Shown piece after piece: positions 22,985 through 51,197 of a stretch of 64,000 nucleotides of DNA; the first letter of the stretch is position 1, and every line of letters begins with the position of its first letter. The stretch is from Polaromonas sp. (GTDB lineage Bacteria; Pseudomonadota; Gammaproteobacteria; Burkholderiales; Burkholderiaceae_C), in assembly GCA_028292745.1 (NCBI GenBank), contig JAQGLT010000056.1, positions 15,860 to 79,859 of the forward strand, written 5' to 3'. Both the position numbers and the translations under genes were made by a program. The notes beneath the pieces were generated by a model. The model made no database searches and was not told the origin of the DNA. It saw only the letters and a list, made by a program, of their open reading frames with translations.

Positions 22985-23413
22985 GTGTTTCAAGGTGCGT
23001 CATTTTTAGCTCTCGATGCAAAAGGTCGGCTTTCGGTGCCGGCCCGTCATCGGGATGCGTTGGGCGCAAATGATTCTGGCCTGTTCACTATCACAAAACA
23101 TCCCCACGGGTGCCTCATGATTTTCCCCCAAAGCGAATGGGAAAAGTTTCGTGAGCGAATTGCTGCGCTGCCGATGCAGGCGCAGTGGTGGAAGCGGATT
23201 TTTCTGGGCAATGCGATGGATGTCGGCATGGACGCAACTGGCCGCGTTCTGGTATCGCCTGAGTTGCGACAGACGGCCGGCATCAGCAAGGACACGGTTT
23301 TGCTGGGCATGGGTAGTTATTTTGAACTTTGGGATGCTGCCGTCTATGCTGCCCAAGAGGCTGAGCAGATGAAGGGCGAAATGCCCGATGTATTTAAAGA
23401 CTTTTCTTTTTGA
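22985..23413 (+). CDS. mraZ: dcw cluster repressor MraZ
   Basis: LDAKGRL and MDATGRVL duplicated motifs; GTG start. Confidence 0.96.
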
Positions 23414-46950: not shown

Positions 46951-47535
46951 TCAGGCCAGGTCGAGAAAATCCAGAATGCGCGGCAGGTGCGCGTCGAAGT
47001 CGCTCAGCGCATGGTCCCCGCCTTCCAGCAGGCAGACGGCCGCCCCGGCATAGCGCGCCGCCATTTCACGCCAGTCGAGCACTTCGTCGCCCTTGGCGAT
47101 GATGGCGAAGTAATTTTGCGGCCTCTTCAGCGCGCCGGTTTGCAATGCGCGCAGCTCGTCGACAAAGCGGGCTTCGAAGAAAAAACGCGCCTCCGGCTGA
47201 TGCCAGGCGGTCTGCTCGCCGATATGGCGCGCCAGGTCGCGCGCCGGATCGACGGCGGGGTTGAGCAGCACCGCCTTGCAGCCCAGGCGCTGCGCGAGTG
47301 TGGTGGCATAAAACCCGCCCAGCGACGAGCCGATGACCGCCATGGTGTCGGCCGGCCAGCCGGCCAGCCCTGTTTCCAGCAGCGCCATCGCCGCCTGCGG
47401 AGAGGGCGGCAGCTGCGGGCACCACCAGGTCACGGCCGGATGGCCGGCCGCGACTAGGGAAGCCATTTTTTTCGCCTTGGCGGATTGGGGCGAGGAGCGA
47501 AAGCCGTGCAGGTAGAGCAGGTGGGTGCTGGGCAT
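46951..47535 (-). CDS. YqiA/YcfP family esterase
   Basis: YLHGFRSSP, GSSLGG, LNPAV, GDEVLD and GGDH motifs. Confidence 0.9.
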   Translation of the reverse strand: MPSTHLLYLHGFRSSPQSAKAKKMASLVAAGHPAVTWWCPQLPPSPQAAMALLETGLAGWPADTMAVIGSSLGGFYATTLAQRLGCKAVLLNPAVDPARDLARHIGEQTAWHQPEARFFFEARFVDELRALQTGALKRPQNYFAIIAKGDEVLDWREMAARYAGAAVCLLEGGDHALSDFDAHLPRILDFLDLA

Positions 47536-47598
47536 GCCCGAATAGTAAGCGCGCTGCTGGCAAGCCCCGCATGGCCGAGACTGCTGCCAGAGGCCAGA

Positions 47599-47662
47599 TT
47601 GATGATCAAATAGCCTCCTGGCGCACGCGGGGTAAGCGTTATAAGCTATGTTTTCAATAGCA
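47599..47662 (-). repeat. Double-palindrome motif copy 9 (esterase/rodA divergent region)
   Basis: GCTAT-TGAAAAC-ATAGC-TTATA-ACGC-TTACCCCGCGT-GCGC-CAGGAGGCTATTTGA. Confidence 0.8.
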
Positions 47663-47727
47663 ATTTTGACGCTGAGCGGTTCCTTCGGCGAACAGGGTTT
47701 CATGCGGGCTGGCTGATAATCCCGGCC

Positions 47728-48882
47728 ATGTCCGCCGCTTTCGACCAACCCTCTCTTTACCAGCGCACCCTGCCTCTGCTGCAGGGCTTTGACGGGCTGC
47801 TCGCCTTTGCCGTGTTCCTGCTGGCGGGTGCCGGCTTGCTCATCATGTACTCGTCGGGCTACGACCACGGCACCCGCTTTGCCGACCATGGCCGCAACAT
47901 GCTGATTGCCGGCGCCATCATGTTCGTGGTGGCGCAGGTGCCGCCGCAAAAGCTGATGATTTTCGCCGTACCGCTGTACATCACTGGCGTGGCGCTGCTG
48001 GTGGCGGTGCTGGTGTTCGGCATCACCAAGAAGGGCGCGCGGCGCTGGATCAACCTCGGGGTGGTGATCCAGCCCAGCGAAATTTTGAAGATCGCCGTGC
48101 CGCTGATGCTGGCTTGGTGGTTCCAGAAGCGCGAAGGGCAGTTGCGGCCTTTCGATTTCGCCGTCGGCCTGCTGCTGCTGGCGCTGCCCGTGGGGCTGAT
48201 CATGAAGCAGCCCGACCTGGGCACCTCGCTGCTGGTGCTGGCCGCCGGGCTGGCGGTGATTTTCTTTGCCGGCCTGAGCTGGAAGCTGATACTTCCGCCG
48301 GTGCTGCTGGGCGTTATCGGCATTTCGCTGGTCGTCTGGTTCGAGCCGCAGCTGTGCGCCGACGGCATGCGCTGGCCGGTGCTGCACGACTACCAGCAGC
48401 AGCGCATCTGCACCCTGCTTGACCCGTCGCGCGACCCGCTCGGCAAGGGCTTTCACATCATCCAGGGCCTGATCGCCATCGGCTCGGGCGGCGTGTTCGG
48501 CAAGGGCTTCATGGCCGGCACGCAGACGCACCTGGAGTTCATTCCCGAACGCACGACCGACTTCATCTTCGCGGCCTACTCCGAGGAATTCGGCCTGGTC
48601 GGCAACCTGCTGCTGATCGCCGGATTCCTGTTCCTGATCTTTCGCGGGCTGGCCATCGCGATCGAGGCGCCCACTTTGTTCTCGCGGCTGCTGGCCGGTG
48701 CGCTCACGATGATCTTTTTCACCTACGCTTTTGTGAACATGGGCATGGTCAGCGGCATCTTGCCGGTGGTCGGGGTGCCGTTGCCCTTCATCAGCTATGG
48801 CGGAACAGCCATGGTGACGCTGGGGCTGGCGGTGGGCATGCTGATGTCGATTGCCAAGGCCAGGCGCCTGGTGCAGACCTGA
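47728..48882 (+). CDS. rodA: Rod shape-determining SEDS protein RodA
   Basis: GARRW, IQPSE, QPDLGT, IPERTTDFIF and GVPLPFISYGG motifs. Confidence 0.94.
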   Translation: MSAAFDQPSLYQRTLPLLQGFDGLLAFAVFLLAGAGLLIMYSSGYDHGTRFADHGRNMLIAGAIMFVVAQVPPQKLMIFAVPLYITGVALLVAVLVFGITKKGARRWINLGVVIQPSEILKIAVPLMLAWWFQKREGQLRPFDFAVGLLLLALPVGLIMKQPDLGTSLLVLAAGLAVIFFAGLSWKLILPPVLLGVIGISLVVWFEPQLCADGMRWPVLHDYQQQRICTLLDPSRDPLGKGFHIIQGLIAIGSGGVFGKGFMAGTQTHLEFIPERTTDFIFAAYSEEFGLVGNLLLIAGFLFLIFRGLAIAIEAPTLFSRLLAGALTMIFFTYAFVNMGMVSGILPVVGVPLPFISYGGTAMVTLGLAVGMLMSIAKARRLVQT

Positions 48883-48991
48883 GCCGAGGCGCGGACTGGA
48901 TAGGGCTTGCGCTGATGAAGTCAACGGGTTAGAAAGCAGTTTGCAAGCCGCAAACCGCTTCAGCAAACCGTAACCTCGAAGGAATCCCTTT

Positions 48992-49327
48992 ATGGCCAGC
49001 ACGTTTGAACTCAAGAAATCGAGCAACAACCAATACCATTTCAGCCTGCAGGCGGGCAATGGCCAAACCATCTTGTCCAGCGAAATGTATGCGGCCAAGG
49101 CCAGTGCCCTGGGCGGCATCGAGTCGGTGAAGAAAAACGCCGCCGACGACAGCCGCTACAACCGGCTGGTCGGAAAAAATGGCGCTCCGTACTTCACGCT
49201 GAGCGCTGCCAACCATCAGGTGATTGGCCAAAGCGAAATGTATTCCAGCGAAGGCGCACGCGATAAAGGCATCGAATCGTGCAAAGCCAACGGGCCGAAC
49301 GCAACGGTCAACGACATCGCGGCCTGA
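48992..49327 (+). CDS. YegP / DUF1508 tandem-domain protein
   Basis: Two repeats of F.L.A.N.Q.I..SEMY....A..GIES.K.N; AAGGA RBS. Confidence 0.88.
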   Translation: MASTFELKKSSNNQYHFSLQAGNGQTILSSEMYAAKASALGGIESVKKNAADDSRYNRLVGKNGAPYFTLSAANHQVIGQSEMYSSEGARDKGIESCKANGPNATVNDIAA

Positions 49328-49416: not shown

Positions 49417-50943
49417 ATGACCTCACTCAACTCCGCCGCCGCCTCCGTTCGACAGACCAATGTTTCAGGCCGCCCGCAGGCGCGCCCCACCCGGGACGCG
49501 ACCGCCGAGCGCCTGCTTATTGCGCAAAAGCTCCTGCTGGCGCCCTTCGGGCTGAACGAAGCGGCCTTGAGCCGTGCGCTGGGTGAAATCACCTCTTACG
49601 GCGTGGACGATGCGGACCTGTATTTTCAGTACACCCGCAGCGAAGGCTGGAGCCTGGAGGAGGGCATTGTCAAGACCGGCTCCTTCAACATCGACCAGGG
49701 CGTCGGCGTGCGCGCCGTGAGCGGCGAGAAAACCGCCTTTGCCTATTCGGACGATATTTCCGAAGCTTCGCTGTTGGATGCCGCCCGCACCGTGCGCAGC
49801 ATCTCGGCCGCCAGCCAGTCCGTCCGGGTCAAGACGCCGGCGCGCAAGGTCGCCAGCAGCCGTTCGCTCTACCGCGACCTGGACCCGATCGCCACCCTGG
49901 GCAGCACCGCCAAGGTCAAGCTGCTTGAAAAAGTCGAAAAGCTGGCCAAGGCCAAGGACCCGCGCATCGTGCAGGTCATGGCGGGCCTGGCCAGCGAGTA
50001 CGACGTGGTGATGGTGGCCCGCGCTGACGGCACGCTGGCGGCCGACGTGCGCCCGCTGGTGCGCCTGAGCGTGACGGTGATCGCCGAGCAGAAAGGCCGG
50101 CGCGAAGTCGGCTCGGGCGGCGGCGGCGGCCGCTTCGGACTGGCCTATTTCGACGATGCGCAGATCGGCCAGTACGTCGATGCCGCCGTGAACGCGGCGC
50201 TGACCAACCTCGATGCGCGCCCCGCGCCGGCCGGCCAGATGACGGTGGTGCTCGGCTCGGGCTGGCCCGGCATCTTGCTGCACGAGGCGATCGGCCACGG
50301 GCTGGAGGGCGACTTCAACCGCAAGGGCTCCAGCGCGTTTTCGGGCCGCATCGGCGAGCGCGTGGCCGCCAAGGGCGTGACGGTGCTCGATGACGGCACA
50401 ATCGCCGACCGTCGCGGCTCGCTCAATGTGGACGACGAAGGCAACGCCAGCCAGCGCAATGTGCTGATCGAGGACGGCATCTTGAAGGGCTACATCCAGG
50501 ATTCGATGAATGCGCGGCTGATGAATGTCAAGCCCACCGGCAACGGCCGGCGCGAAAGCTACGCCCACGTGCCCATGCCGCGCATGACCAACACCTACAT
50601 GCTGGGCGGCGACCGCCAGCCGGATGAAATCATCGCCAGTATCAAAAAAGGCCTGTACGCCAGCAATTTCGCCGGCGGCCAGGTTGATATCACTTCGGGC
50701 AAGTTCGTGTTCTCGGCCAGCGAAGCCTTTTGGGTGGAAAACGGCAAGATTCTCTATCCCGTTAAGGGCGCGACCATCGTGGGCAACGGCCCCGATGCGC
50801 TCACCCGCGTCACCATGATCGGCAACGACATGCAGCTCGACAGTGGCGTCGGCACCTGCGGCAAGGAAGGCCAGAGCGTGCCGGTCGGCGTGGGCCAGCC
50901 CACCTTGCGGATCGACGGCCTGACCGTGGGCGGTACGGCCTAA
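49417..50943 (+). CDS. tldD: Metalloprotease TldD
   Basis: HEAIGHGLEGD, PRMTNT and CGKEGQSVPVGVGQP motifs. Confidence 0.95.
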   Translation: MTSLNSAAASVRQTNVSGRPQARPTRDATAERLLIAQKLLLAPFGLNEAALSRALGEITSYGVDDADLYFQYTRSEGWSLEEGIVKTGSFNIDQGVGVRAVSGEKTAFAYSDDISEASLLDAARTVRSISAASQSVRVKTPARKVASSRSLYRDLDPIATLGSTAKVKLLEKVEKLAKAKDPRIVQVMAGLASEYDVVMVARADGTLAADVRPLVRLSVTVIAEQKGRREVGSGGGGGRFGLAYFDDAQIGQYVDAAVNAALTNLDARPAPAGQMTVVLGSGWPGILLHEAIGHGLEGDFNRKGSSAFSGRIGERVAAKGVTVLDDGTIADRRGSLNVDDEGNASQRNVLIEDGILKGYIQDSMNARLMNVKPTGNGRRESYAHVPMPRMTNTYMLGGDRQPDEIIASIKKGLYASNFAGGQVDITSGKFVFSASEAFWVENGKILYPVKGATIVGNGPDALTRVTMIGNDMQLDSGVGTCGKEGQSVPVGVGQPTLRIDGLTVGGTA

Positions 50944-50986
50944 TGCGAAGGCAGGCTGCCTGCCGCAGCCTTGATTTTTTGAGCTG

Positions 50987-50995
50987 TGCTACATT
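50987..50995 (+). promoter_or_regulatory. Putative extended -10 promoter for the DAHP synthase leader
   Basis: TGcTACATT ends 7 nt before the leader ATG. Confidence 0.5.
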
Positions 50996-51002
50996 CCAGC
51001 AG

Positions 51003-51077
51003 ATGAATTCCGCGAAATTTTCTTTTGCTTACTTTTGGTTCTCAAGCGCCACCGGCGGTAGAGAGACTTTCGCGTAA
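51003..51077 (+). CDS. Putative attenuator leader peptide MNSAKFSFAYFWFSSATGGRETFA
   Basis: A 24-aa uORF with six aromatic codons among residues 6-13. It precedes a terminator and an aromatic-pathway gene. Confidence 0.8.
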   Translation: MNSAKFSFAYFWFSSATGGRETFA

Positions 51078-51102
51078 GCACCAGAAAACGCAGCGAATCT
51101 CC

Positions 51103-51135
51103 AAAAACCGCCGGGCCACCCGGCGGTTTTTTTTT
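51103..51135 (+). terminator. Attenuator terminator upstream of DAHP synthase
   Basis: ACCGCCGGG-CCA-CCCGGCGGT followed by a T run. The 5' arm can alternatively pair with CCGGCGGT at 51052-51059. Confidence 0.88.
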
Positions 51136-51197
51136 GCCTATCTCAATCCAGTGAAACAGCCTGAACCCGTTTTGAAATCCTAAAAAGGAAGCCCGTG

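Follow-up and report, generated by a model that had tools for sequence, protein, structure and literature searches.

The class-I DAHP synthase gene of a Polaromonas sp. is preceded by a leader that we regard, with considerable confidence, as a ribosome-mediated (leader-peptide) transcription attenuator. The leader lies in a 64,000-nucleotide stretch of contig JAQGLT010000056.1 (positions 15,860 to 79,859 of the forward strand), which was analyzed as a whole and is referred to here as the window; its parts and neighbors are listed in Table 1. Comparison with related loci shows the parts of an attenuator, their conservation, and the covariation of three helices, and the arrangement is not chance. 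The layout of the pheL and trpL attenuators, which a first-pass annotation had recognized upstream of DAHP synthase, is supported by comparative evidence. The mechanism is textbook; the leader itself is uncatalogued, conserved in the family Comamonadaceae, and widespread in the order Burkholderiales. None of Rfam, Pfam, and NCBIfam contains the element, which is consequently left without annotation wherever it occurs.

Table 1 Features of the DAHP synthase leader and its surroundings (positions in the window)
Feature	Start	End	Strand	Details
tldD, separate gene 5' of the leader (context only)	49414	50943	+	NCBIfam TldD equivalog, E 6e-197
Hairpin and T tract 3' of tldD, terminator-like	50953	50981	+	Terminator scan: 7 pairs, 5 G-C, tail TGATTTTTTG
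Extended -10 element TGTG-C-TACATT	50985	50995	+	In sequence; TG-n-TACATT at 50987-50995
Leader ORF, 24 codons and TAA, no Shine-Dalgarno	51003	51077	+	ATG 51003, TAA 51075-51077, peptide MNSAKFSFAYFWFSSATGGRETFA
Regulatory codon cluster F6, F8, Y10, F11, W12, F13	51018	51041	+	Family motif F-Y-F-x-Y-F-W-F
Region 1, 5' arm of the anti-antiterminator (UUCUC...CGCC)	51039	51050	+	1:2 pairing; hairpin 51036-51068, -12.0 kcal/mol
Region 2: CCGGCGGU, GAGAG, UUCGC; partner is region 1 or region 3	51052	51073	+	
Region 3: GCGAA, UCUC, ACCGCCGG(G); antiterminator 3' arm and terminator 5' arm	51093	51115	+	
Intrinsic terminator: 13-bp stem, loop CCA, 9 T (51127-51135)	51103	51135	+	-21.4 kcal/mol
Shine-Dalgarno AAGGAAG of the DAHP synthase gene	51185	51191	+	In sequence; 6 nt 5' of ATG 51198
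Class-I (AroFGH type) DAHP synthase, regulated gene	51198	52319	+	TIGR00034 aroFGH, E 6.5e-160

An aromatic-rich leader ORF upstream of DAHP synthase

The upstream open reading frame (uORF) had been singled out in the first-pass annotation for its wealth of Phe, Tyr, and Trp codons, and its coordinates were correct. Aromatic codons fill six of the eight consecutive positions from F6 to F13 in the window's leader, where Phe accounts for five of the seven aromatic codons and Tyr and Trp for one each; in the family, Phe makes up about 20% of all leader codons. To sample the family, the DAHP synthase protein was searched against 60 genomes, one per genus, and the best 30 loci were taken, of which 29 were usable. 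All 29, from other genera, possess a uORF with the motif F-Y-F-x-Y-F-W-F, followed by GGCGGnnGAGAG and then by a CCGCCG...CGGCGG hairpin with a T run. The first-pass annotation had proposed just such an alignment upstream of DAHP synthase genes across the family as a check, and it returned both the conserved aromatic-rich uORF and compensatory changes.

Of 151 genomes sampled across the order, 35 matched a covariance model (R1) built from the family loci, each exactly once. When applied to the class, with one genome per family, the model matched 3 of 151 genomes: the window's own genome, one relative in the same family, and one genome from another family. Each of the 30 matches that were fetched lies directly 5' of a DAHP synthase ortholog (57-82% identity). 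An aromatic-rich uORF, with the aromatic codons in frame with the start codon, is present in every related locus, and the cluster is kept in 59 of 59 order-wide leaders, which contain F in 59 cases, Y in 57, and W in 47. In the family, the kept run varies synonymously (TTT/TTC 78/52, TAT/TAC 14/32) and, to judge from these alignments, behaves as a run conserved as codons. No Pfam or NCBIfam family matched the leader peptide.

The gene immediately upstream, tldD, ends 60 nt before the uORF, and short ORFs are common, so that a chance ORF beside an ordinary 3' terminator of tldD had to be considered. Synteny and conservation refute this reading, and its probability is negligible. The DAHP synthase gene adjoins the leader in 60 of 60 related loci, whereas tldD is found within 1.5 kb in only 33 of them, which ties the element to the synthase gene; a terminator-like hairpin of its own follows tldD, and 29 genera of the family share the uORF. 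In the window, within 50941-51077, the tldD stop codon overlaps an ATG (TAATG at 50941-50945). The 44-codon frame opened by this ATG continues in frame into the leader peptide, and a ribosome that has finished tldD on a read-through transcript might in principle restart at the overlap. The overlap is missing from the other tldD-linked loci inspected (e.g., L010 and L021) and is therefore probably fortuitous.

The best-fitting HMM for the regulated enzyme is the AroG model, from whose score the allosteric type (Phe-, Tyr-, or Trp-sensitive) is not assignable. The gene is the sole PF00793 match in its own assembly (G000), which is 88% complete, and no PF01474 match was detected in that assembly. 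KDO-8-phosphate synthase (kdsA), expected in a Gram-negative bacterium, was not found there by PF00793 either, which implies that genes were missed and that a second DAHP synthase may exist in the Polaromonas genome. About half of the family's genomes encode a second DAHP synthase paralog, and the leader element is absent from 20 of 20 of these more distant paralogs.

Alternative helices and the geometry of the proposed ribosome stalling

The strong terminator proposed at 51103-51135 was confirmed by the terminator scan (51103-51131, 13 pairs of which 8 are G-C, a 3-nt loop, and a T run to 51135); it is conserved and covarying, and its T run ends 62 nt 5' of the DAHP synthase gene. The complementarity on which the first-pass annotation had based an antiterminator, between CCGGCGGT at 51052-51059 and ACCGCCGG at 51107-51114 with additional TTCGC/GCGAA and GAGA/TCTC pairing, is also correct. 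Folding of the window gives this antiterminator (51052-51114) -25.0 kcal/mol, and its GGCGG/CCGCC core is conserved and covarying. A competing helix formed by CGCGAAA (51011-51017) and TTTCGCG (51068-51074) fared less well: both motifs are where they had been placed, but the helix was discarded, as 35.9% of cells are paired, the level found in shuffles. The conserved anti-antiterminator pairs region 1 with region 2 through UUCUC:GAGAG (51039-51043 with 51061-51065) and CGCC/GGCG, with moderate support for an outer extension, GCUUAC/GUAAGC.

RNAalifold applied to MAFFT alignments predicted only the terminator; the remaining helices were named and then counted. Because the covariation consists of a few changes shared among related lineages, the counts that follow are of cells and not of independent events: in 59 sequences, 90.1% of the terminator (3:4) cells are paired and 18 double changes replace G-C by A-U, and the antiterminator core (2:3, GGCGG/CCGCC) is 83.9% paired with 14 C-G to U-A double changes. 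The 2:3 count was made on an alignment not fitted to the 2:3 helix, and slid controls for this core are only 15-52% paired. The UUCUC:GAGAG part of the 1:2 helix is 93.5% paired, with compensatory changes in five of five pairs, in an alignment fitted to a model that includes the 1:2 helix. At one variable position, regions 2, 3, and 4 covary three ways, as C-G-C in 30 sequences and T-A-T in 14, and locus L020 compensates for a G-to-A change in region 2 with C-to-U changes in regions 1 and 3 alike. Members of the family differ very little in the cores of the terminator and the antiterminator. Taken at the level of sequence comparison, the compensatory changes support three mutually exclusive helices, 1:2, 2:3, and 3:4.

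In the mechanism that we propose, RNA polymerase would start from the extended -10 promoter, on or beside the first base of the leader ATG; a ribosome would bind the AUG at the 5' end, translate the uORF, and trail the polymerase. If charged Phe-, Tyr-, or Trp-tRNA were scarce, the ribosome would stall within F-S-F-A-Y-F-W-F (51018-51041) and cover region 1; region 2 would then be free to pair with region 3, and this antiterminator would block the terminator and let the polymerase continue into the DAHP synthase gene. With an ample supply, the ribosome would continue through region 2 until it met the stop codon, leaving region 3 to pair with region 4, and transcription would end in the T run at 51127-51135. 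If the uORF were not translated at all, 1:2 and 3:4 would both form, and termination would again be expected.

The spacing of the codons fits this mechanism. In 54 of 58 leaders, 8-12 nt separate the last aromatic codon from the GGCG of region 2, approximately as far as a ribosome extends beyond its A site in footprints, and this distance is suited to a stalled ribosome that frees the antiterminator. In a stall scan of the window, which masks the RNA to 10 nt beyond the A-site codon, the antiterminator is intact with the A site at any codon up to F13 and is abolished from codon 15 onward. The aromatic cluster thus stops at the last codon whose stall can still switch the gene on, and in the family consensus Y-F-W-F occupies the last four codons that permit the antiterminator.

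The isolated region 2-3 segment has the antiterminator as its minimum-energy fold in 57 of 58 sequences, and median energies over these sequences are -21.5 kcal/mol for the antiterminator and -18.3 kcal/mol for the terminator, with region 2 set from alignment columns. Even without a ribosome, the antiterminator is thermodynamically about as stable as the 1:2 structure, which means that the switch would depend on the order of folding.

The GGCGGnnGAGAG segment is kept letter for letter in three reading frames (the other-frame cases are L008, L024, and L026) and also past the stop codon in short peptides ending ...PGG, which argues for a constraint on the RNA and not on the peptide. In these short-peptide leaders (L002, L004, L007, L013, and L023), the TGA stop lies inside the conserved GGCGGAUGAGAG, and a second GGCG, which follows within GAGAGGCGAG, could pair with region 3 in a different register. 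Such conservation at the RNA level would also be expected if a protein or small ligand acted on GGCGGnnGAGAG to control the terminator, in a TRAP-like or riboswitch-like manner, with the uORF incidental or encoding a micropeptide, or if the short transcript were itself a small RNA, since a terminated leader would make a stable small transcript. We consider this very improbable: the two covarying alternative pairings fully account for GGCGGnnGAGAG, no Rfam riboswitch or peptide family was matched, and the aromatic codons, conserved as codons, share the frame of the start codon and keep a constant distance of 8-12 nt to region 2, a spacing that would have no role in a ligand model.

The putative promoter and probable start of the leader transcript

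The first-pass annotation had pointed to an extended -10 element next to the ATG and to the lack of a Shine-Dalgarno sequence, and both observations hold. The -10 hexamer ends 7 nt 5' of the leader ATG at 51003; no Shine-Dalgarno sequence precedes this ATG, and the 7-nt gap leaves no room for one. Across the family, TG-n-TAnnnT is found 6-9 nt (mode 7) 5' of the uORF start in 29 of 29 loci, and the DNA flanking the element is unconserved on both sides. Across the order, 40 of 59 loci have a TAnnnT hexamer at the leaderless distance (34 of them with TG), compared with 1% at random positions. With the -10 element of every family locus lying 6-9 nt from the ATG, a leaderless start is likely, and transcription would begin on the A of that codon or about 1 nt away from it at most. 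A simple consensus scan, a method unable to exclude a promoter, found no promoter-like site in 51136-51197.

Two loci from other families of the order, L041 and L044, have an SD-like GGAGAGGG before the uORF and no -10 element abutting the ATG. Putatively leaderless and SD-led forms of one attenuator coexist within Burkholderiales, and the leaderless layout would accordingly be particular to a lineage and dispensable for the device.

RNA sequencing runs matched the window with shares of at most 0.07 of the sampled words, all as contigs. Among four runs placed on the window, the contigs of two independent studies (X6 and X2, from relatives) that cover the leader extend upstream unbroken through the gap and into tldD, which could reflect tldD read-through or DNA carry-over. 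They bear on the possibility that the attenuator is real and not leaderless, the transcript starting further upstream or reading through from tldD and the uORF being initiated internally without a Shine-Dalgarno sequence. The SD-led loci L041 and L044, which lack a -10 at the leaderless distance, point the same way, as does the rarity of leaderless mRNAs in a studied Burkholderiales species, with about 90 non-tRNA cases (PMC4603805). This alternative is nonetheless unlikely, if far from negligible, in view of the strict placement of the -10 element in the family despite its unconserved flanks and the 1% hexamer control, the missing SD-like motif and the lack of space for one before the leader ATG, and the terminator-like hairpin that separates tldD from the leader at 50953-50981; the contigs, for their part, cannot show RNA ends. 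The same limit applies to the downstream ends of the X6 and X2 contigs, at 51135 and 51138 in the terminator T run, with a separate contig over the synthase gene: they are a weak hint of termination, or else an assembly break at the inverted repeat.

The amino acid signal and comparison with known leaders

The attenuator resembles the pheL-pheA (Rfam Phe_leader, RF01859), pheM-pheST, and trpL leaders of E. coli in its short uORF with a run of cognate codons, in its three overlapping helices (1:2, 2:3, and 3:4), and in its intrinsic terminator. All of the Rfam Phe_leader model (positions 1-125) can be aligned to 51002-51136, with 28.8 bits (E 0.01), a score far below the gathering score of 55 that defines RF01859 membership. 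In contrast to the pheL-type leaders, that of Polaromonas governs the entry enzyme of the pathway and not a terminal branch, mixes F, Y, and W codons where the known ones use Phe only or Trp only, and has no Shine-Dalgarno sequence, its promoter abutting the ATG.

A functional analogy exists with the aroR leader of Corynebacterium glutamicum, which Neshat and co-workers reportedly found in 2014 to be leaderless as well. This leader comes from the Actinobacteria, where leaderless mRNAs are common, and unlike the Polaromonas leader it has no Trp codon. Its F-Y-F leader peptide precedes aroF, encoding DAHP synthase, and responds to Phe limitation (PMC4046766, PMC11802643), whereas Tyr supply is without effect (PMC11802643). 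In Streptomyces lividans, a hairpin and a U stretch lie downstream of leuL, ilvL, and other leader peptides that are transcribed without a 5' UTR (PMC8079986); these leaderless attenuators belong to other pathways and another phylum, and none was reported there before DAHP synthase.

It is plausible that the one Polaromonas leader senses all three aromatic amino acids. That the same attenuator instead senses essentially Phe only, with the lone Tyr and Trp codons adding little and no integration of three products, is a sizable possibility, though one that we do not favor. The codon counts lean toward it, given the dominance of Phe in the window's leader and in the family and the absence of a Trp codon from 12 of 59 leaders, and so does the C. 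glutamicum precedent, in which Phe limitation raised aroF transcription and Tyr availability did not (PMC11802643). Sensing of all three is favored by the retention of Y in 57 and W in 47 of the 59 leaders, although Trp is a rare residue, and by the family's Y-F-W-F, which fills the four final codons whose stall would still free region 2. In addition, the position of W varies among the leaders of other families, so W is not fixed by RNA pairing alone.

A stronger form of the proposal, in which the Comamonadaceae leader peptide is obligatorily leaderless and Y-F-W-F lets a shortage of any one aromatic amino acid open the pathway entry, is less likely than not. If it were true, a 70S ribosome would bind the AUG at the 5' end once that end was clear of the polymerase, and a single three-input sensor would stand in place of the three isozymes plus TyrR and TrpR of E. 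coli. Among Proteobacteria, no conserved leaderless attenuator would have been shown earlier, and aromatic synthesis would be coupled to conditions that favor leaderless translation. Even on the milder reading, a leaderless start, if confirmed, would make this an unusual attenuator for Proteobacteria, one needing no Shine-Dalgarno sequence.

The first-pass annotation took the leader to be undescribed in the family, which is true of part of it. Naville and Gautheret listed an aroG family of 21 candidates of unknown type, '? (21)', in 2010 (Table S1), and a terminator before Aave_0852 of Acidovorax, a genus of Comamonadaceae (Table S8; PMC2965389). These premature terminators very probably belong to the same terminator family as that of the Polaromonas leader. 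Their survey recorded the terminator only; the leader peptide, the alternative helices, the promoter, and the signal are absent there. Targeted and general full-text literature searches returned no description of a betaproteobacterial aroG leader, the start-site supplements for B. cenocepacia mention only a different paralog (PMC4603805), and no regulator of shikimate pathway entry was found described for Burkholderiales in the literature searched. The attenuator would thus give a mechanism to the aroG terminators marked '?' in 2010 and provide a testable account of shikimate entry control in an order of pathogens, plant associates, and production strains. It is also a compact natural part of about 150 nt, comprising a promoter, a putatively leaderless sensor, and a terminator, which metabolic engineers might reuse or would have to delete.

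When the whole assembly was crudely scanned for further leaders that combine a codon run with a terminator, only the DAHP synthase leader was convincing. One further aromatic-rich short frame, MFLYFYVFCVSR (L083, contig C60 of G000, near 23196), had no convincing terminator or downstream gene and is probably chance. Elsewhere in the window, a 722-codon minus-strand frame (46951-49119) overlaps a membrane-protein-like 384-codon plus-strand frame (47728-48882); the antisense frame seems to result from the high G+C content and not to be a gene.
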